Part shown: positions 2,815-34,219 of the stretch, one piece after another
How the letters are laid out: every line of letters starts with the position of its first letter
How positions within the stretch are numbered: position 1 is the first letter of the stretch
DNA from: Dictyostelium discoideum
Lineage: Eukaryota
DNA: 64,000 nt
NCBI GenBank assembly: GCA_000004695.1
Contig: CM000153.2
Coordinates: 1,472,001 to 1,536,000 of the forward strand
Reading direction: 5' to 3'
Made by a program: the position numbers and the translations under genes
Notes under the pieces: generated by a model
What the model was told of the DNA's origin: nothing
Seen by the model: only the letters and a program-made list of their open reading frames with translations
The model's database searches: none

Positions 2815-4375
2815 TTATTTTTTTTTATTTTTTGATGATGATTGTGATGATTTATTTTCTTCATTTAATAATTGTTCATATTTATCATTAACTTCTTTTG
2901 CTTCATCTTTTCTATTTAATGCTTCTAAAGCTTGAGCTTTTCTAAGATAACCTTTTGGCCATTTTGGTGCGAATTCAATTGATTTCTCAGCATCTTTGAG
3001 TGCTTCTTCATAGTTTTTAAGATTGAATTGACATGCTGATTTATTACTATAGAGAGTATGAGCGATTAATTGATCTTTTGGTACATTTTCATTTAAGACA
3101 TCTTCGACATCGATTGCTAATTGATACCAATGAAGTGCAATTTCATAATCATGTTTATAGAATGCTTTATTACCATTGTTTTTCAATGCTTCTGGTGATG
3201 CTCTTTCATCGGCTCCACCAGATTTACCACCTTTACTCTTTTGTGCAGATTCTTTTGCTTTTTTAAATGATTCTGCATCCAATGTTAAATTTGACATTAA
3301 ATCTTCCAATTGTTTATTCTTTTTTTGTTTTGCCATAAGTAATGGTGTTAAACCATCACTATCCATCTTTAAAATTGCACCTTTTTCAATTAAACTCTTA
3401 CAAATTTCAATATCTTCTGCGTCAGTTGCAATATGTAATGGTGTTGTGCCATCATTTGCTGTAACATTTACATCTGATCCTAATTTAATTAATTCTAATG
3501 CTAATGATCTATTACCATATGCTATATTAAAAAATTATATTAATATATTTTTTTTTTTTTTTTTCCTACCCCAATATTTAAAAATATAAATTTAAATAAA
3601 TACCAATTGCAATATGTAATGGTGTCATATTATTAATATCTCTTGTATTTAAAAGTAATGGTTCACATTTAACTAATTCATTAATGATTTCTAAATCTCT
3701 TAAACCACAAGCAGCATGTAATACACTTCCAGATTCAGATTTTTCAACAGAAATCTTTGGTTTCTTTTCAAGTAATAATTTAATGATCTTTTTTTCATTA
3801 CTTAATACTGCCAATTGAAGTGGTGTATATCCTTCCTTACTAACTGTATTAATTTCACATCCTAAATTAATTAATTTCATTGCCATAACAACATTACCAA
3901 CTTTAATTGCTTTCATTAATGGTGAATATCCTTCCTTTATTATTATCATTTATTTATTATTATTTATTAAAAAAATGTTAAAATGTTAAAATTTTTATAT
4001 ATATATATATATATAAATAAATATATATATTGGTATATATATATATATATATAAAATAAATAGTATTTAAAATCTTACAAAATCAACAATATTAATATTA
4101 GCATTATATGAAACTAATAAATCAAATAATGATTCATAATTATGATAAGCGGTATAAAGTACAGCAGTTCTTTTGGCAGCATCATGTGAATTTAAAAGTT
4201 TATCACATTTTTCTTTGTCTTCTAAAGTTTCTCTAATTTTATTGATACGATTATTTACAACATCTTGTAAAAACTCTTCGATATCAGCATCAATTTTGGT
4301 TTTTTTTAATTTACCAGATTTAATTAATTCTTCAATATCTCTACTTTGTTCTTTATTTAATTTACTATTAATCAT
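2815..4375 (-). CDS. Ankyrin-repeat plus TPR-repeat protein; exons (minus strand) 4375..4079, 3934..3604, 3521..2815
   Basis: Three listed minus ORFs (4067-4375, 3578-3949, 2815-3366) join in frame. The first junction is ..ANINIVDF|GTAAGA...AG|EGYSPLMKAIKVG.., which runs through ankyrin repeats (TPLQLAV, TPLHIAIG). The second is a GTATTT donor at 3603 and an acceptor at 3522, giving AYGNRSLALELIKLGSDVNVTANDGTTPLHIATDAEDIEICKSLIEKGAILKMDSDGLTPLLMAKQ.. The gene continues into TPR-like repeats (NKAFYKHDYEIALHWYQLAI.., YEEALKDAEKSIEFAPKWPKGYLRKAQALEALNRKDEA). Confidence 0.7.
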
Positions 4376-4825
4376 CTTTTTTTTTTTTTTTTTAAATTAA
4401 TTATTTAATTAATTATTTTATATCTGATGAGAAAAACGAAAGATTCCTAAAAATAAAAATAAAAAAAATTAAAAATTTTTGGTGAAAACGAAAAAAAAAA
4501 ATAAAAAAATAAAAATTAAAAAAAAAAAAAAAAATAAAAATAAAAAAACCCAATTTCAATAATTTCTCAGAGAAATTCCATAATTTAATTATTTGTTTTT
4601 TTATTATTTTCTCAGGTTTATTTTCTATCGATATATTGGAAATCATCATTGAGTTTTTTATTCTTAGATTTTTAATATACAATAATAATTTTTTAACATT
4701 ATAATTTATATCAATATCACCAACCTTAAATAATCCTCACAAAAAATAAAAATTAAAATAATAATAAAAATGAAATAAAAAAACATTAAATAAAAAAAAA
4801 AAAGAAAAACTTAAAAAACACTCTT

Positions 4826-5125: not shown

Positions 5126-6032
5126 AACTTTTAACCTATATGATAATAAAAAAAAAAAAAAAAGAAAAAAAAAAAAAGTATTTACAAAAAAAAAAGAAAA
5201 AAAAAAAATTAAAAAAAAAAAAAAAAAAAAAAAAATTAAAATATGTTTAAATTGGTGTGAAAACATTTAAATTTAAATAAAATAAAATAAAATAAACTTT
5301 TTAGTAAATTAATGTTTCAACTCGTTAATAAAATATTAAATTTTAATTTTTCCATTTACAGAATATTCTTTATAAAATTTAATGAAAAAAAAAAAAAAAA
5401 AAAGTCAAATTATCTTTTTTTATTTTTTATTTTTTTTATTCATAGCTATAATAATAATAAAAAGTAATATTTTTTAATGTGAATAGTAATAATATAAATG
5501 TGAATAATAATAATTATAATAATAGTAAACTTGTTTTTAAAAATAAAAAAAAAAGGAAAAAAAAAAAAAAGGAAAAAATAAAAAAAAAAAAATATAAATA
5601 TAAAAAATTATAAATAGTTGAGAGGGTCATTATTGAATTCAAATACCACAGAAAGATTTTATTTAAAGATATTTAATTGAATTTGTTATTTTAAATTTTC
5701 ATTAGTATTTACATATGACACAACCAAAAATAACGGTTATTTTACCCCCTTTTCAATCGATATTATAGAAAAAACAGAATAATTAATTTTTGACTATTTT
5801 TAGAAAAAAAAAAAAAAAATTAAAAAAAAAAAACAAAATAAAAAATTAATTTTATTTTTTTTATTTAAATTGTTTTTTTTTTTTTTTTATATTAAAAAAT
5901 TAAACAAAACAAAAAAAAAAAAAATAAATTGATTTTTCAAATAATAATAATACCACACCCAAACACACTATTAAATTAGTAAAAAGAAAAAAATTAAAAT
6001 AAAATTAAATAAATAAAATAAAATAAATAAAT

Positions 6033-6404
6033 ATGGAACATCTTTGTAGAATTAACTGGAAAGAAATTAAAAATAGAAAAGAATTAGAAAAGGAAATTAT
6101 TGATTGGTGTGATAAAAATTATAGTGACATTAATGAATTAAAAAGAGTTGATGTTTTAACTTTAATAGAAACACATAATTTATTAGACAATAGTAAATTA
6201 TCATATGACCAAGAATCCGGATTCAGTAAGATTGAAATAACAATTGATGCAAGAGTGTTTTATGGAATTAAATCAAAATGGAATTTAACTTTTAATTTCC
6301 CAGAATTTGGTGAACATTGTATTTCATTACTTATTTCAAGATATTATGGAGAAATTAGAAAAGAAGATTTCTATAATTATACTCATGATATTACAATTGC
6401 TTAA
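6033..6404 (+). CDS. Hypothetical small protein (123 aa), single exon
   Basis: This is a clean ORF with Dictyostelium-like codon usage and no simple-repeat content (MEHLCRINWKEIKNRKELEKEIIDWCDKNYSDINELKRVDVLTL..). I do not recognise a domain, and coding status is not proven. Confidence 0.35.
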   Translation: MEHLCRINWKEIKNRKELEKEIIDWCDKNYSDINELKRVDVLTLIETHNLLDNSKLSYDQESGFSKIEITIDARVFYGIKSKWNLTFNFPEFGEHCISLLISRYYGEIRKEDFYNYTHDITIA

Positions 6405-14935: not shown

Positions 14936-17900
14936 TTATACAATATTATCATGATCTGATAATAATGATAATTTTTCAATTTTATTATTACTCTTTGAAG
15001 AGATTGTTGGAGATGATTCGAAAATGATTTTATTTTTCTTGAAAAGTTGTGATTGCTCTTTATGAATTCTTTGTCTAGTTTCTTCGGTTGTACGAGAATG
15101 AATTGGAATATCTGGTTTTTGATAAGTTTTTAAATGAAGTGAAGAAAGTACGACGCTGATTGAAGAGAAAGCCATTGCTAAACCAGCCATCATTGGTGGA
15201 ATTGAAATACCAAATGGTATGAGTAAACCAGCAGCTAATGGTATACCTAATATATTATAAAGTGTTGCCCAAAGATAATTGAAACGAATACGATTGAATG
15301 TAGTTTTCGATAAACTAATTGCAGTGATTACATCTCTAAGATCACTTTTAACCAAAACTATATCAGCTGCTTCGATTGCGATATCAGTGCCAGCACCAAT
15401 TGCAATACCGACATCAGCCTCTGCCAAAGCGGGACTGTCATTAATTCCATCGCCAATCATTGCCACTGTGTGACCCATCTTTTTCAATTCCATAACTTTC
15501 TTTGATTTATTCGATGGTAATACCTCTGCAAACACTTGATCGATACCAACCTGTTGAGCTATAGCATTTGCAGTTCTTGGATTATCACCTGTTACCATCC
15601 AAGTACAAATTCCCATCTTATTCAACTCTGTAATGGTTGCATGTGCTTCTGGTTTCAATTGATCAGAGATTGCAATATATCCCATTAATTGTCTATCAAT
15701 TACAACATAAACAACTGTATTACCATCAGATTCTAATCTTCTTACTTGATCTTCAATGTGTGATAATGTTCCTTCATCATCATCATCATCATCATTGTGG
15801 TGGTGGTTGTTGTTTATTGATCTATCCGGACTAATAGTTAATGTTGGATCATATGAAATACCTTCACTCTTTATCCATTTCAAATTACCAATCATAATTT
15901 CAATATTATTAGGTGCTAAAGTTGCACGAATACCACTACCAGTTATTGATTCGAATGATAGTGGTGGTGTTGTTGATTGAACATCACAAACTTCAAATGC
16001 ATAATTTACAATTGCGCCTGCTAATGGATGTTCAGATGCAGCTTCTGCTGATGCAACCATTTGAAAGAATGTTTTTTTATTTATTTTACCACTATTATTA
16101 TTACCATTGTTGTTGTTGTTGAGATTACCAAAAATATTTACATTTGATACAATTGGTTTACCAGTTGTTAATGTACCAGTTTTATCGAAAATGATTGCTG
16201 AAATTTTATGAGCTGTTTCTAAATGACTACCACCTTTAATTAAAATACCATTTTGAGCACCAATACCAGTACCAACCATAACAGCCGTTGGTGTAGCCAA
16301 ACCCAATGCACATGGACATGCGATTACAATTACAGAGATTGCATTTCTTAGAGCGAATTGAAATACTGAACTATTTGATGCTTTTATATAATCAGAGGCA
16401 ACACCAGATGAACCAGCAATTAACCAAACTATGAATGTTAATAAACCCAATGTAATCACTGATGGAACGAAATAACCACTAACTTTATCGGCTAAACTTT
16501 GAATTGGGGCTCTCTCTGTTTGAGCTTTTTCAACCAATTTAATGATTTGTGATAATGAAGTTTCACCACCGATTCTAGTTGCTTTCATAACTAACACACC
16601 CTTTTGATTTAATGTACCACCAATTAATTTATCACCAGATTTCTTTGAAACTGGTAAACTTTCACCAGTGATAATCGATTCATCTATATGTGATAACCCA
16701 CTAACTACAATACCATCGGTTGGTACTTTACTTCCTGGTAATACCTTTAAATAATCACCACGTTGAACTAAATCAATATCAATTTCTCTTTCTTCTAATA
16801 TAGTTGTTGTAGTTTTATTATCACTACCACCACCACCACCACCACCTTCATTTTGATCAATTGTTAATAATAATGCTTTTGTAGCTTGTAAACCCATTAA
16901 TTTTTTAATTGCTTCTGATGTTTTTCCTTTTGCAATCACTTCTAAATATTTACCTAATAAAATAAAAGTTATCAATGATGCAGAAGTATCAAAAAATGTT
17001 TTCATTCCAACTGTACTACCACCATCCTCTGAAGTATAATCCATTAACAATACCATTAAACTATAGAAATAAGCACAACTTGTACCCAATGCTACCAATA
17101 CATCCATATTGGCACCACCATGTTTTAATGATTTATAACCATTAACATAAAATCTTTTACCAACTAAAAATTGAACTGGTGTTGTTAAACATAACATAAT
17201 TGAATCTGCATAACTTATACCATGTAAAATATTATTTGTATATAAAAAATTGAAAACTAAATAATAATAATAATAATCATTTTTTTTTTTTTTTGGATAT
17301 TAGTATTATTTTGTATATTTTGGTAATTAATTTAATAGTAATAGTAATAAATAAATACATACAACTAATTTTATGTAAAACCATTCCAATTAAAAATACA
17401 GGTACAGTAAAAAATGTACTAAATATTAAATTTTTCTTTAATTTTTCAGCTTCTTCTTTTTGAATATTTTTAGTATCATCAAAATTTTGAGAAGGTATTT
17501 GAGCAGTGAAACCTACATCTTCAATATTTCTAATGATATCTCTAACACCAGTTAAATCTGGATCATATACAACTCTTGCCGTTTCCATTGCTAAATTCAC
17601 TCTACACTCGATTACACCATCAACATTTGAAACATAATTCTCTATAATTCCAACACATGATGAACATGTCATACCTCCAATATTTAAAACTATTGTATTA
17701 TTCTCTGCTTGTACTAAATGTTTAGCTTCAAATCCAACCATTGAAATTTGTTCAACTATATCATCTTCCTATAAAAAAAATTATAAAATCAATATTAAAT
17801 ATTCAAAAAATCATCACATTTTTATTTTTATTTTCATTGTCATCATCATCATCATCATCATTATGATCATATTTTATGATATTTTTATAATTTATTTACA

Positions 17901-18134
17901 TACACTTAAAATTAATGGATTAAATTTAACTTCAGCAGTTTCTTGAAGTAATGCAACTTGTATTGAGATTACACCTTCAACATTTGAAACAAAACTCTCT
18001 ATAATTCCAACACATGATGAACATGTCATACCCTGTACACTAAAAATGGCTTTTTTTTCTTTCGGTATTGATGCTCCATCTGGAAATTCTTCAACCTTTT
18101 TATCTAAAACTTCTAATTGAATGTAATCTCCCAT
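14936..18134 (-). CDS. Copper-transporting P1B-type ATPase with two N-terminal HMA domains (ATP7-like); exons (minus) 18134..17904, 17768..17363, 17256..14936
   Basis: Two HMA motifs GMTCSSCVGIIE fall on exons 1 and 2. Junction 1 is ..NPLILS|GTATGT...TATAG|EDDIVEQISMVGFEA. Junction 2 is ..VLHKIS+t|GTATGT...TTTAG|tt.FNFLYTNNILHGISYADSIMLCLTTPVQF (phase 1 verified). Exon 3 carries the TGES-like actuator, the CPC motif (IACPCALGLATPTAV), DKTGTLT, GDGINDSPALA, and C-terminal TM helices. The product is about 985 aa. Confidence 0.8.
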
Positions 18135-18276: not shown

Positions 18277-18338
<62 letters not shown>

Positions 18339-18725
18339 GAGCTAATTATAATAATAATAATGTTATTATGTCAGTAATCTGTTTAATTATTATTATTATT
18401 TTATCTTTTTATTTTTATTTTTTTTTATTTTTTTTTCAAATATTTGAGTTTTATAGAGTGTGTGTGTTGAATATCTTAAGATGGATTTGGTTTTTTTTAA
18501 AAGAAAATAAAAAAAATAAAAAAAAAAATAAAAAAAAACTGGGTGAAGATTGTGTTTTAAAAAAAAAAATAAAAAAAAATAACAATAAAAGTTATTTGAT
18601 CAATTACAATAAAACTAAAAATTATATAGGTATTTTCAAATTTATAACAGTTTTAAAATTATAATCTTACTTTTTTTTTTTGTTTTTTTTTTTATTCCAA
18701 AATAAATAAATAATAAATAAATTAA

Positions 18726-18764
<39 letters not shown>

Positions 18765-18933
18765 GTTCACCTTTTTTTCACTTCTCCTTCTCCCTCTTCT
18801 TTGGTTTGGAAAAAAAAAATTAAAAAAATTAAAAAAATTAAAAAAATAAAGAAATTAAAAAAAAAAAAAAAAGAAAATTAAAAAAAAAAAAAAAAAAATA
18901 TTAAAAAATAAACGATATTTTTCCAACTTTTTT

Positions 18934-19262
18934 GAAACACAACAATTTTTGTGAGATTTCATTTTTTGTGGATTATATATTCTGTGGAAAAAAAAAAAAA
19001 AAAAAATAAGGAAATATTTTTTTTTTTTTTTTTTTAATTTTTTTTTATTTATTTTTTTTTTTTATTTATTTTTTTTTTATTTCTATTTTTAATTTTTTTT
19101 TTATTTTTTATTTTTTTTCCACAAATAGTGTTTGGTCATGTGAAAAAAAAAAAAAAAAAAGAATTATTGATTTTTGAATTTCTCTATACATTAAATATTA
19201 TTGAGTGATACTTGGAATAATAAATTGATTATCCTTTACATTAATAATATGTGAATTTATAA
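18934..19262. repeat. Direct repeat copy 1 (about 330 bp); pairs with copy at 20840..21197
   Basis: It starts gaaacacaacaatttttgtgagatttcattttttgtg and ends ..gaatttctctatacattaaatattattgagtgatacttggaataataaattgattatcctttacattaataatatgtgaatttataa. The second copy is near-identical apart from its internal poly-A/T region. Confidence 0.8.
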
Positions 19263-19644
19263 AAAAAAAAATAAAGGAAAAAGAAATATTAGTTTAAAAT
19301 TTTAATCAATCATATAATCTTATCATTTTTTATTTATCTTTATCCTATTAAAAGAATTTTTTTCATGGTGAATATTAGAACTAATTAATAAAAATAAATA
19401 TATAAAAAAAAAACTAAAAAAAAAAAAAAATAGAAAGAAAAAAAAAACTAAAAATAAAAAAAAAATTTTTAAACAAAAGAATCTTTTTTTTTTTTTTTTT
19501 TTTTCAAAAAAAGTTTCCAGTTTATTATGTTCTCATTTTGAATTTGAATCTAGAACTATATATTAAAACACATTTTCAATCAACATAAATTTGTTATTGC
19601 TGATGTTAATCAAATTACAAATTTAGTTGGTTATTTAGAACCAA

Positions 19645-19656
19645 TTGGAAAAAGCA

Positions 19657-19734
<78 letters not shown>

Positions 19735-19890
19735 GGTAAACCACTAACAGAATTTACAACAACAGTTGTTCAAACTCAAACTTCAAAATCTGAACCTGTT
19801 ACAAACTATTATTTACTTTGTGACATTTGGTACCACAAGATCAAGATTTTAGAAGAAAATTACAAACTGGTAAGTTTCTTTTTTTTTTAA
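19645..19890 (+). other. ORF of doubtful coding value that overlaps a (GTT)23 microsatellite and ends at a GTAAGT donor-like site; possible upstream fragment of the degenerate element
   Basis: The listed ORF reads MEKAI(V)26GKPLTEFTTTVVQTQTSKSEPVTNYYLLCDIWYHKIKILEENYKL, followed by gtaagt. No phase-compatible acceptor links it to the ORF at 20174. Confidence 0.2.
19659..19736. repeat. (GTT)n microsatellite; a second (GTT)n lies at 18278..18338
   Basis: This is read directly from the sequence. Confidence 0.95.
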
Positions 19891-19926
19891 TAAAGATTTT
19901 GAATACTAAGAATCTTGAAGTTTTAA

Positions 19927-20042
<116 letters not shown>

Positions 20043-20173
20043 TAATAATAATAAAAATAATACTAATCTATAAATAATAAATAAAAAAAATACTAATTTA
20101 TTATAAAAATTTTCTTTTTTTTTTTTTTTTTATAAATTAAATTGGTGATACATCTAATGAAATTTATGAAAGT

Positions 20174-20566
20174 TTGAAGAATCAATTAAAATATAGATAT
20201 GCGGATGGTAATATAAAAAAAGATTATTTAAATTTTATTTATTCAAGAGATTATTGTTATCAAGATTTGATTAGAGATAAAAAATCAAATGCTTCAGAAA
20301 AACAATTCAAAAGGAATTTAATTGATTTTTTACATAGAAATCACAACGAAGAGATTCAAATCTTGAAATCAAAAATCAATAAAATCAATGATAAAGATAT
20401 CAAATCGTTCTTTCAATTTGTTATAGTTTATTTTGGTTCTGCTCATTTTTCACATAGCTCTGGAGGTTGTCAAACTGGTTATGGGACAAAAAGAATCATT
20501 AAAATTTGGGAAGATTTAGGTTGTAGAGTTATATTGGTAGATGAAGTTTATACTTCACAGGTATGA
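20174..20566 (+). pseudogene. TnpB/Fanzor-like (OrfB_IS605-type) fragment covering the RuvC-II region through the conserved YTSQ motif; degenerate
   Basis: ..FVIVYFGSAHFSHSSGGCQTGYGTKRIIKIWEDLGCRVILVDEVYTSQV* aligns by eye with ISDra2 TnpB IIGTEHL...[38 protein letters not shown]. The positions S-x-S-x-G-x3-(F/Y)-x3-(I/L)-x-(I/Y)-K, G-x-(V/I), V-D/S-x-x-(Y/F)-(T/P)-S-Q are conserved. The catalytic Glu position reads Ala and about 14 residues are missing. The ORF starts with TTG, has no in-frame Met, has an in-frame stop just upstream, and shows no RuvC-I motif. After TSQV the sequence decays into AT-rich repeat. Confidence 0.45.
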
Positions 20567-20649
20567 ATAATTATATATATATTTAATAATATAAAAATGA
20601 AAATAATAATAATAATAAATAATAATAATAATAAATAATAATAAATAAT

Positions 20650-20828
20650 AATTTTTAATGGTAAAGTTGAGTTGTTCCCTTTATGTATATGTTAAATGCA
20701 CCAACATTATCACGATTTTTAATTCCATGAATTTTGCAACGTTTTAATTTGTAACATTTATTGAAACACTCGAGTTTTTCATTTGGTCCAACGGGACATT
20801 TTACACCTTTTACTTGCGAAAAATATTT
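20650..20828 (-). pseudogene. TnpB/Fanzor-like C-terminal fragment (zinc-ribbon remnant plus RuvC-III motif), convergent with the plus-strand fragment
   Basis: The minus-strand reading is (K)YFSQVKGVKCPVGPNEKLECFNKCYKLKRCKIHGIKNRDNVGAFNIYIKGTTQLYH*. The string NRDNVGAFNI matches the TnpB RuvC-III consensus h-D-R-D-x-N-A-A-x-N-I. The C..C..C..C arrangement is a degenerate zinc ribbon. The N-terminal YFSQV overlaps the C-terminal YTSQV of the plus-strand fragment at the protein level but with different codons, so these are two diverged partial copies. It abuts direct-repeat copy 2. Confidence 0.45.
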
Positions 20829-20839
20829 TTAGTTTTATT

Positions 20840-21197
20840 GAAACACAACAATTTTTGTGAGATTTCATTTTTTGTGTAAAAGAATTTGATTATATACTCC
20901 GTGAAAAAAAAAAAAATAAAAAAAAATAAAAAATAAAAAAAATAAAAAAATAAAGAAAAGAAGGAAGTCAAATAAGGATATTTTTTTTTTTTTTTTTTTA
21001 ATTTTTTTTTTATTTATTTTTTTTTTTATTTCTATTTTTAATTTTTTTTTTTTTTTTTAATGTTTAATTTCATATGAAAAAAAAAAAAAAAAAAAGAATT
21101 ATTGATTTTTGAATTTCTCTATACATTAAATATTATTGAGTGATACTTGGAATAATAAATTGATTATCCTTTACATTAATAATATGTGAATTTATAA
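20840..21197. repeat. Direct repeat copy 2 (about 358 bp)
   Basis: See copy 1. It has the same orientation and sits 1.9 kb downstream of copy 1. Confidence 0.8.
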
Positions 21198-21284: not shown

Positions 21285-22129
21285 TTATTTAACAAAAGCT
21301 TCAGAAACATCTTTTAATAAAGCAACTCTTGTACGTGATAATTTAACACCTAAAATTGGGGCGGTGTAAGAGGCTTTTTCGGCGTTTAATAACTTTGCAT
21401 AAAAGAAATCCTTAAAGGCTTGATCCTTTTTGAAGAGTCCATTTGCGGGCATTGGTGGACCGAATTGAGGAACATTATCCTTTGAAACCACAGCCATTTT
21501 ATAGTAACGTTGATTTGGATCGGAATCCAATTTGACCGCCTTAACCAATAATACAACATGAACTTGACGAGAACTAATTGTGGTTGGTCTGTAGACGGTA
21601 TCACCGTCTTGGAAAACGATGACCACAATATCGTTACCGATGTGACGTTTTCTCTCCAATTGTTGTTTATCCTTTTCATTGAATGGTAGCATGCAAGAGA
21701 CATGATACATCACCTCATTGTTGTTCCAACGCTGATAGATTGAATGTGAACCGGTTGTACCAGTTCTAACGTCCAATCCCGCTCTAAAGTGTGTCCAACC
21801 CTCCAATGGAACACGATCACCAATAAAATCCAAAAACTCTTCAAACTCTGGACTAGTTTGAACGTTTGAAAACATTTCATCCTCTTTGTTTTGTCCTTCT
21901 TGAGCGTACAATATTCCAAATTTAAATCCTTTAATTGTTTGTTTCTCTTCAAGATTCATTAAAGCTTGTGATATTCTTGGATCTGTTATCAATTTTAATC
22001 CTCCATAATTATTACCTAATGCTTTCAATATATCGTATGGTGATGGTCCTGTTCTAAATATTCTTCTCCACCATGATGCTTTTATATTATCAACTGGTAT
22101 TTTAACTCTTTCATTACCCTTTTTTTTTC

Positions 22130-31560: not shown

Positions 31561-34100
31561 ATGTATGTTGTAAAAAGAGATGGTACAAAAGAAAATGTAA
31601 AATTAACATTAAATAAAACTATTTATAAATAAAAAAAATAAAAAAATAAACAATAAAACTAATAATAAAAAAAAAAAAAAAATAAAGGTATCATTTGATA
31701 AAATTACATCAAGAATTTCATTTTTATGTGAAATGGAACCAAAATTAAATTCAGATATAGTTGATCCAATTGAAGTAGCACAAAAAGTAGTTAGTGGAGT
31801 ATTTCCAGGTGTAAAGACTACAGAATTGGATAATTTGGCAGCCGAGACAGCAGCATATATGTCAACACGTCATCCAGATTATGGTATTTTGGCAGCACGT
31901 ATTAGTGTATCGAATCTTCATAAACAAACTTCAAAGAGTTTTGTAGAGACAGTTAAGAAACAATATGAATTCATTAATCCAAAGAGCAATTTATTGGCAC
32001 CATTGGTCAGCAAGGAGCTCTATGAAATCGTAATGAAACATGGTGAGAGATTGGAGAGTGTCATTGATTATTATCGTGATTTCGATTACGATTTCTTTGG
32101 ATTCAAAACATTGGAACGTTCCTATCTTCATCGTATCAATGGTAAAATTGTCGAGCGTCCACAACACATGTTGATGCGTGTCTCCATTGGTATCCATGGC
32201 GAAGACCTCGAATCTGCCATCAACACCTACAAACGTTTGTCTGAGAAATTGTTCACTCATGCCACACCAACTCTATTCAACGCAGGTACACCATCACCAC
32301 AAATGTCATCTTGTTTCTTGGTTCAAATGAAGGAGGATTCAATCGATGGTATTTATGACACTTTGAAACAATGTGCACTCATTTCAAAGAGTGCCGGTGG
32401 TATTGGTATTGCAGTTCATAAGATTCGTGCTGCTCAAAGTTATATTCGTGGTACCAATGGTACAAGCAATGGTTTGGTGCCAATGCTTCGTGTTTTCAAT
32501 GATACTGCTCGTTACGTCGATCAAGGTGGTGGCAAGAGAAAGGGTGCCTTTGCCGTTTACTTGGAACCATGGCACGCTGATGTCTTTGAATTTATTGATC
32601 TAAAGAAAAACACTGGTAAGGAAGAGATGAGAGCTAGAGATCTATTCTATGCTCTTTGGGTTAGTGATATTTTTATGGAACGTGTCGAACAAAATGGCGA
32701 TTGGGCCCTCTTTTGTCCAAATGAAGCACCAGGTCTTGCTGAAACTCACTCAGAGGAACATCGTGCTCTCTATTTGAAATACGAAGCAACACCTGACCTC
32801 CCAAGACGTGTCATTAAAGCTCAAGAACTTTGGTTCGCCATTATGGAGTCTCAAGTTGAAACTGGTACTCCATTCATTTTGTACAAGGATGCCTGTAATG
32901 CTAAATCCAATCAAAAGAATTTAGGTACCATTAGTAGTAGTAATCTTTGTACCGAGATCATTCAATACACATCACCAGATGAAATCGCCGTTTGTAATCT
33001 TGCCTCTATAGCACTTCCAAAGTTTGTTCGTCAAAAAGTAGGCTCAACCGATCCAAAAGAAAAAGAGTTTGACCATCAATTCCTATTTGAAATCACAAAG
33101 TTAATAACCGTCAATCTTAACGTTATCATCGATCGTAACTATTATCCAGTGGCTGAGGCTAAAACTTCAAATCTTAGACATCGTCCAATTGGTATTGGTA
33201 TTCAAGGTTTGGCCGATGTTTTCATTAAAATGCGTATGCCTTTCGATAGTGTTGCCGCCGCTAAATTAAATGTTGAAATCGCCGAAACCATTTACTTTGC
33301 CGCTTTGACTGCCTCTCATGAATTGGCGATCCGTGATGGTACCTATGAATCTTTCAAAGGTTCACCAGCTTCCAAAGGTATCCTCCAATTTGATATGTGG
33401 AATGTTACACCAAGTTCTCGTTGGAATTGGGCAGAGCTAAAGGATAACATTGTCAATAAGGGTGGTTTACGTAATTCACTCCTCATTGCACCAATGCCAA
33501 CCGCTTCAACAAGTCAAATCCTTGGTAACAATGAATGCTTTGAACCTTACACTTCCAACATTTACAGTCGTCGTGTTTTAGCAGGTGAATTCACAATTGT
33601 CAACAAACAATTACTCGAAGATCTCATGGAATTGGGCATTTGGTCACCAGAGATGAAGAATCAAATCGTTGCTGCACGTGGTTCCATTCAATCCATCGGT
33701 GGCATCCCTGATGATTTGAAAGAACTCTATAAAACAGTTTGGGAAATCCGTCAAAGAACTCTCATCGATATGGCTGCTGATCGTGGTGCTTTCATCGATC
33801 AAAGTCAAAGTTTCAATGTTTTCATTGCTGAACCAACCTTTGCTAAACTCACCTCAATGCATTTCTACTCATGGAAGAAAGGTTTAAAGACTGGTATGTA
33901 CTATCTTCGTACTCGTCCTGCCGCTGATGCAATTCAATTCACTGTTGATCCAATCGTATCTCAAACTCCAAAACCAGTTGAAAATAATATAAACTCAACT
34001 ACACCACTTAAAACTCCAACTAAAACTCCAAACTCTTCAAATCGTATCTCTACTAGTCCAACTAATAATTTAACAAGTCCAATTCGTTTTAATATAACCC

Positions 34101-34138
<38 letters not shown>

Positions 34139-34219
34139 AATAATAATGAAGATGATTTGGCTAATTATGATGGTATGACTTGTCGTCGTGAAGAAGGTTG
34201 TTTAGTTTGTGGTAGTTAA
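31561..34219 (+). CDS. rnrA: Ribonucleoside-diphosphate reductase large subunit (RNR R1); exons 31561..31596, 31688..34219
   Basis: Exon 1 is [12 protein letters not shown]|GTAAAA. Exon 2 is [15 protein letters not shown]..., near-collinear with human RRM1 ([27 protein letters not shown]...). It has an ATP-cone, the catalytic core ([41 protein letters not shown]) and the C-terminal ..CLVCGS tail. The upstream ATG at 31516 is out of frame with stops. The symbol is a guess. Confidence 0.85.

Follow-up and report, generated by a model that had tools for sequence, protein, structure and literature searches.

Introduction

Fanzor1 proteins are the eukaryotic branch of the TnpB/Cas12 family of RNA-guided RuvC nucleases. 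Within the dictyostelids, Fanzor1 proteins carried by Sola2 elements have been described as DFa-1 to -4 from Cavenderia (Dictyostelium) fasciculatum and PPa-1 to -7 from Heterostelium (Polysphondylium) pallidum (Bao & Jurka 2013, PMC3627910). These proteins are 945-1827 aa long and contain RuvC-I, large N-terminal regions and a zinc-ribbon insert of ~200 aa, while the elements that carry them measure 10-15 kb and have 12-22-bp terminal inverted repeats (TIRs), 4-bp AT-rich target site duplications (TSDs) and a Sola2 transposase (PMC3627910). Fanzor1 was catalogued in D. fasciculatum and P. pallidum and not in D. discoideum (PMC3627910), and a full-text literature search returned no other paper containing both 'Fanzor' and 'Dictyostelium'.

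We analysed a 64-kb stretch of D. discoideum AX4 DNA (hereafter the window), which is extremely AT-rich (GC 15-30%). Two peptides encoded in it on opposite strands share with the DFa/PPa Fanzor1 proteins the block F(I/F)G(S/N/A)A(K/H)FSHN(S)(R/G)G ... (I/V)(N/D)E.(N/Y)TS(R/K/Q), followed by (N/H)RD.N(A/V)(A/G).NI. Both also have a non-acidic residue in place of the canonical RuvC-II Glu, retain the Glu before YTS and contain spliceosomal introns, and the profile-profile probability is 96%. The window locus differs from these elements in that only ~200 aa of the C-terminal region are left, split and partly inverted, with neither TIRs nor a Sola2 transposase and with a flanking duplication of ~0.35 kb in place of a 4-bp TSD. 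With TnpB (IS200/IS605, e.g. ISDra2) and Cas12f, the window locus shares G..V..VD..YTSQ.C leading into the TNB/zinc ribbon and the RuvC-III motif D.NAA.NI; at the family level, the PF07282 match and the Cas12f chains that were the sole PDB matches reflect the same likeness. Unlike TnpB/Cas12f, the window locus lacks the canonical RuvC-II Glu and has a Fanzor/TnpB2-type rearranged site, and it is eukaryotic and intron-containing, with no RuvC-I, WED or REC and no guide-RNA scaffold detected. Fanzor2 (IS607-type, e.g. ACa-1 of Acanthamoeba, ApmFz2) carries the motif GCRVVLVDESYTSKTCGGC, which resembles GCRVILVDEVYTSQ of the window (15 bits), but this match is far weaker than that to Fanzor1, and ACa-1 is without the GSAKFSHNSRG block typical of dictyostelid Fanzor1.

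Judged by its sequence, the relic is a new, decayed member of the known Fanzor1 family, which means that D. discoideum, the model species, retains fossils of this family; no new mechanism is implied. We consider it probable that the locus is the inert relic of a Fanzor1-type gene that was split, had its 3' part inverted, and lies in an insertion specific to AX4. The features of the locus are collected in Table 1.

Table 1. Features of the Fanzor1-like locus (window coordinates) and positions of the dispersed paralogous unit (coordinates of each fetched locus).
Feature	Position	Strand	Evidence
DR1, upstream copy of duplicated host intergenic segment	18932..19262	.	blastn 18915-19262 vs 20823-21197; aligned to ACTFIY single copy
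Left part of AX4-specific insertion; (GTT)n 19655-19735, (AAT)n ~19930-20060	19263..20069	.	Absent from syntenic L005, L006, L007
AT-rich stretch, start of homology to paralogous copy L001	20070..20140	+	L001 5149-5253 vs window 20070-20180, 79%
5' Fanzor1-like fragment: helical linker, RuvC-II strand (FVIVYFGSAHFS), alternative Glu, YTSQ; DDB_G0284143 ORF; no Met	20141..20560	+	P0100 match E 3e-12; Fanzor1 tblastn 20363-20563; hhalign
Conserved phase-0 intron, 5' part (GTATGA...), after YTSQ	20561..20618	+	Homologous to L001 intron; ACTFIZ copies share intron position
AT-rich junction, left breakpoint of inverted piece	20619..20654	.	No L001 homology; only low-complexity inverted repeats
Inverted 3' Fanzor1-like fragment: zinc-ribbon/TNB remnant, RuvC-III motif NRDNVGAFNI, stop codon	20655..20830	-	L001 5577-5734 vs 20830-20674, 92% inverted; P0100 E 8e-7
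DR2, downstream copy of host segment, continuous with RapGAP gene 3' flank	20837..21197	.	blastn and alignment to ACTFIY single copy
Copies of the ACTFIZ C-terminal unit	L002 9963-11206; L003 9969-11228; L004 9753-10720; L008 10410-11736		

Reading frames of the locus

Translation of both strands recovered the two peptides at the positions and on the strands given by the first-pass annotation, and it bore out the absence of an in-frame Met and of a RuvC-I motif noted there. The plus-strand frame is open from 20141 to 20563 (listed as ORF 20174-20566), contains no Met and ends ...FVIVYFGSAHFSHSSGGCQTGYGTKRIIKIWEDLGCRVILVDEVYTSQV at a stop codon. On the minus strand, 20828-20658 translates to KYFSQVKGVKCPVGPNEKLECFNKCYKLKRCKIHGIKNRDNVGAFNIYIKGTTQLYH, with the stop codon at 20657-20655. 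A second copy of either peptide was not found in the 64-kb window. The plus-strand ORF translates, without a mismatch, to residues 6-127 of the hypothetical protein DDB_G0284143 (D. discoideum AX4), the annotated first exon of which lies ~1.8 kb upstream of the frame in low-complexity DNA. Our literature search found no paper mentioning this gene.

Homology of the two fragments to Fanzor1

The link to Fanzor/TnpB was detectable only via relatives of the window fragments. When each fragment was searched alone against Pfam and NCBIfam, no TnpB model was reached, and phmmer of the reconstructed single peptide against PDB gave no match. Among 1.84 billion representative proteins, an HMM search matched only P0001 (AX4), P0002 and P0003; a profile search added P0004 and P0005, and a cluster look-up added P0099 and P0100. 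Apart from P0001, these relatives come from two assemblies labelled "Dictyostelium cf. discoideum", with locus-tag prefixes ACTFIY and ACTFIZ. All five family members tested matched PF07282, the Cas12f1-like TNB domain formerly named OrfB_Zn_ribbon (curated cut-off 26.3 bits), P0003 scoring 29.1 bits. The window pieces, from which the first Cys-bearing segment is missing, scored 20.7 bits when joined by hand and 25.6 bits with the L001 bridge, both below that cut-off.

A PDB search with the family profile returned Cas12f chains only (8j3r, 8j12, 8j1j, 7wju, 8dzj; E ~0.006), the match covering ...G..VI.vd..YTSQrC..C. Against the published Fanzor sequences (Additional file 3 of Bao & Jurka 2013, PMC3627910), hmmsearch with the family profile gave 29.5, 28.7, 19.8 and 15.0 bits, the first three being dictyostelid Fanzor1, and none of 2100 shuffled decoys was reported. 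In the reciprocal direction, tblastn of Fanzor1 against all fetched loci fell on window 20363-20563 and on the equivalent positions of the paralogues. Alignment of the family to the dictyostelid Fanzor1 alignment with hhalign gave a probability of 96.35% (E 1.5e-9, 92 columns). By eye, VYFGSAHFSHSSGG...LVDEVYTSQ of the window is the same block as ...F(I/F)G(S/N/A)AKFSHNSRG...(37 aa)...INE(F/Y/C)(N/Y)TS(R/K) of dictyostelid Fanzor1 (PMC3627910). The AlphaFold2 model of P0004, built from a 6-row alignment, had a pLDDT of 35.6 and was unusable. The matches to PF07282, Cas12f and Fanzor1 profiles, together with the decoys, the reciprocal tblastn and the hhalign result, support the descent of both peptides from a TnpB/Fanzor-type RuvC protein, specifically Fanzor1, an assignment that draws on roughly 90-110 aligned residues. 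The TnpB/Fanzor-like origin proposed on first inspection was thereby upheld through the family profile, neither fragment reaching a Pfam TnpB model by itself.

Catalytic residues and domain content

At the canonical RuvC-II Glu position the window has Ala (FGSAHF), which had been taken as a sign of nuclease death, and the shortening by about 14 residues nearby had been taken as a sign of decay. Neither interpretation held. Dictyostelid Fanzor1 proteins read GSAKF, GNAKF or GAAKF at this position, with the same spacing as in the window (PMC3627910), so that this spacing is typical of genuine Fanzor1. Jiang et al. (2023, PMC10530073) reported that all Fanzors replace the canonical RuvC-II Glu with an inert residue and have an alternative Glu ~45 residues downstream, which is essential in ApmFNuc. 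In the window, the alternative Glu is the E of VDEVYTSQ, which is invariant across the family alignment; at the sequence level, the rearranged RuvC-II, with its non-acidic canonical position and alternative downstream Glu, is present. In Fanzors, finding Ala, Gly or Pro in place of the canonical RuvC-II Glu is no evidence of inactivation.

The minus-strand piece carries the RuvC-III motif NRDNVGAFNI, which aligns with HRDDNAFGNM of P0100 and FNRD(K/V)NAARNI of Fanzor1. RuvC-I (catalytic Asp, ..IDPG..) was absent from the window and from the copies L001-L004 and L008, and tblastn with Fanzor1 queries spanning RuvC-I aligned to the RuvC-II/YTS block only. Upstream of 20141 no Fanzor resemblance was found for the N-terminal WED/REC region. 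What survives is the C-terminal third of the protein only, in which the helical linker is followed by the RuvC-II strand with the alternative Glu, a partial zinc ribbon and RuvC-III. For the guide RNA, there was no Rfam match, and folding of the 3' region of the window gave z = +2.2, with no structure above shuffles and no guide-RNA scaffold detected.

The two pieces as probable halves of one gene

The C-terminal third appears to have been broken, its 5' piece lying on the plus strand and its 3' piece inverted ~95 bp downstream. We compared both pieces with the collinear ACTFIY paralogue L001, in which both gene halves lie on one strand. Window 20363-20618 matched L001 5247-5499 at 89% (89.5%) identity, and window 20830-20674 matched L001 5577-5734 in inverted orientation at 92% (91.8%). 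In L001 a GT...AG intron directly follows YTSQ, after which the exon begins KCPTGVILANKEIEKKYFSQV...; the more distant ACTFIZ proteins read YTSQ-RCCKCVIPTEDILM-SMFPNC... and have an intron at the same place as L001. Along P0100, the plus-strand fragment corresponds to residues 66-170 (E 3e-12) and the minus-strand fragment to residues 187-241 (E 8e-7), so that the pieces are adjacent and do not overlap, and what is missing is a 16-residue segment with the first zinc-ribbon cysteines. In multiple alignments, MAFFT misplaced the short minus-strand fragment unless a long relative was included.

The first-pass annotation had read the pieces as overlapping at Y(T/F)SQV and had concluded that they were two diverged partial copies lying tail to tail and not an inversion. 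Because collinear relatives place YTSQ and YFSQ 16 residues apart, these motifs are successive positions of the protein with no overlap between them, and the pieces would be complementary halves of one gene copy. Two independent partial copies, the first cut short at the 3' end and the second at the 5' end, seem unlikely. The opposite orientation of the pieces, the disappearance of the ~80 bp expected between them and the presence of paralogous copies elsewhere in related genomes would all suit such a pair, but the supposed overlap does not exist, the reference gene is partitioned between the pieces with a gap of just 16 residues, both resemble L001 to a similar extent, and both sit in one block that is wholly absent from three relatives. 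A single gene copy that broke and had one part inverted would be the simpler account, and three points favour it: the pieces complement each other exactly, they have diverged from L001 to a similar degree, and they occur together in a single insertion. In such a broken copy, the ~80 bp lost between the pieces would have held the intron's 3' end together with 15-16 codons, among them those for the first zinc-ribbon cysteines.

The minus-strand stretch 20831-20900, immediately upstream of KYFSQV, was considered as a remnant of the bridging exon KCPTGVILANKEIEK on the basis of a gappy alignment, and was rejected since it is host flank, found again in DR1 and at the relatives' empty sites.

An insertion specific to AX4

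Syntenic loci were fetched via the RapGAP orthologue from three related genomes (L005, ACTFIY; L006, ACTFIR; L007, ACTFIW). In each of them, the match to the window, followed from the RapGAP side, breaks off at ~20826 and resumes at ~19262, so that the block 19263-20836, including all Fanzor-like sequence, is absent in 3/3 related genomes. This block sits between the RapGAP gene and the copper-ATPase gene and is flanked in AX4 by two copies of a ~330-360 bp direct repeat (DR1 and DR2), which are identical in their unique stretches and differ by indels in A/T runs; the duplicated segment is single-copy in the three relatives. Since the relatives lack the block and hold the repeat once, AX4 carries an insertion of ~1.57 kb within a host duplication of ~0.35 kb, a feature that distinguishes it from its close relatives. 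On its right side, the insertion ends directly against the 5' end of the inverted piece. In the left part of the insertion (19263-20140), no Fanzor1 or Pfam match was found, and similarity to any fetched locus was restricted to low complexity.

Inverted repeats at the breakpoints consisted only of A/T-rich low-complexity sequence, with no TIRs; the window contained no transposase ORF, and no tRNA genes were found as a targeting cue. Transposition of the Sola2 type does not fit, because a ~0.35-kb duplication without TIRs stands against the 4-bp TSDs and 12-22-bp TIRs of those elements (PMC3627910). The block more likely arose when a complex repair or duplication event picked up pieces of DNA as a patchwork. 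We infer that a single, already-truncated paralogue would have been copied into the locus by one such event, which would also have inverted the 3' end of the copy; the inversion may instead be older than the insertion, or the pieces may have been captured separately. Synonymous divergence in the RapGAP exon between AX4 and the three related genomes was 0.05-0.075, and between the relic and L001 dS was ~0.18 (8-10% of nucleotides). Because the dS of the relic exceeds that of RapGAP, L001 is a paralogue and not the source, and the likely donor is an unseen AX4 copy.

The neighbours of the insertion are a gene for a heavy-metal (copper) P-type ATPase with an HMA domain (17892-18134, minus strand) and the RapGAP gene (21285-22028, minus strand), the product of which is a GTPase-activating Rap/Ran-GAP domain-like protein 3; the two genes keep the same order and orientation in 3/3 related genomes. 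The minus strand of both repeat copies contains a short ORF fragment (MKSHKNCCVS...) that might be confused with relic sequence. Two (GTT)n microsatellites, both perfect and at least 21 units long, lie at 18277-18339 in host DNA and at 19655-19735 inside the insertion, where the repeat gives rise to a poly-Val ORF (19645-19890), the non-repeat part of which (GKPLTEFTTTVVQTQ...NYYLLCDIWYHKIKILEENYKL) was without any match.

Paralogous copies in related genomes

A full-length Fanzor was not found in any D. discoideum-complex genome. In the ACTFIY paralogue L001, 183 bp are deleted, a 1-bp shift breaks the frame and a stop comes early; among the ACTFIZ copies, 22 bp are deleted from L002, and L004 is truncated at its 5' end. 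The L001 pseudogene lies between 385-bp direct repeats (4240-4617 and 5853-6237) that are 93.8% identical, each of which holds a complete U1 snRNA gene (4413-4574 and 6033-6194; Rfam RF00003, 81.6 and 85.9 bits).

ACTFIZ contains at least five dispersed copies of a 1.2-1.3-kb unit that codes only for the C-terminal third of a Fanzor1-like protein. Their coding parts are nearly identical, and the copies have a sharp common 3' end (...AAATATAAACAATGAATAAA), variable 5' ends and two retained introns; neither terminal inverted repeats nor target duplications were evident. In L008, the segment 11500-11740, which spans the ORF end and the 120 nt up to the repeat boundary, folded with an MFE of -42.9 kcal/mol (z = -3.0; 1/200 shuffles as good), the copies being too alike for covariation. 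This fold sits at the position expected for a Fanzor guide RNA.

A C-terminal-only 'mini-Fanzor' (linker, RuvC-II, TNB and RuvC-III) that was spread or kept as a unit in the D. discoideum complex is a doubtful proposition. Such a unit would be either a non-autonomous mobile element with a guide-RNA-like 3' structure or a domesticated protein, and the AX4 locus would then be a recently mobilised and subsequently scrambled copy, not the end point of slow decay.

Decay of the locus

We regard the locus, as far as sequence can tell, as a non-functional Fanzor1 relic, a genomic fossil. It appears dead because RuvC-I, the N-terminal half and a start codon are all absent, because the gene is split and because the first zinc-ribbon segment is lost; RNA-guided DNA cleavage would not be expected, since RuvC-I is missing. 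The decayed state proposed in the first-pass annotation was thus borne out, on these grounds and not on that of the RuvC-II Ala. Between the window and L001, dN/dS was 0.31 for the 5' piece (6 synonymous and 8 non-synonymous changes) and 0.87 for the 3' piece; the overall value was 0.57 (38 changes: 11 synonymous, 27 non-synonymous), and these changes are too few to decide. The value for the 5' piece may reflect some past constraint.

A nuclease-dead short protein that was domesticated, with DDB_G0284143 or a C-terminal-only family expressed in a nucleic-acid-binding or regulatory role, is very improbable. The annotation of DDB_G0284143 as a gene, the low dN/dS of its 5' piece and the common C-terminal-only extent of the ACTFIZ copies, some with open frames (e.g. 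P0100, 280 aa), speak for it. They are set against a frame with no Met whose annotated first exon is remote and of low complexity, a locus missing from three close relatives, the deletions, frameshift, early stop and truncation in L001, L002 and L004, the overall dN/dS and the lack of any paper found on the gene. The gene model of DDB_G0284143 would instead be an annotation artefact at a locus that is now inert, and this orphan gene is reassigned as a pseudogene fragment. A chance likeness of AT-rich, low-complexity ORFs to TnpB motifs is scarcely credible, for although neither fragment alone reached a TnpB Pfam model and the single-sequence PDB search was empty, the family-level matches to PF07282, Cas12f and Fanzor1 came with decoy controls and reciprocal tblastn.

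Elsewhere in the window, a GC spike at 31733-34219 (0.40 vs ~0.22) coincides with an uninterrupted ORF of 828 aa, which from its motifs we take to be the large subunit of ribonucleotide reductase, by its look an ordinary conserved gene.
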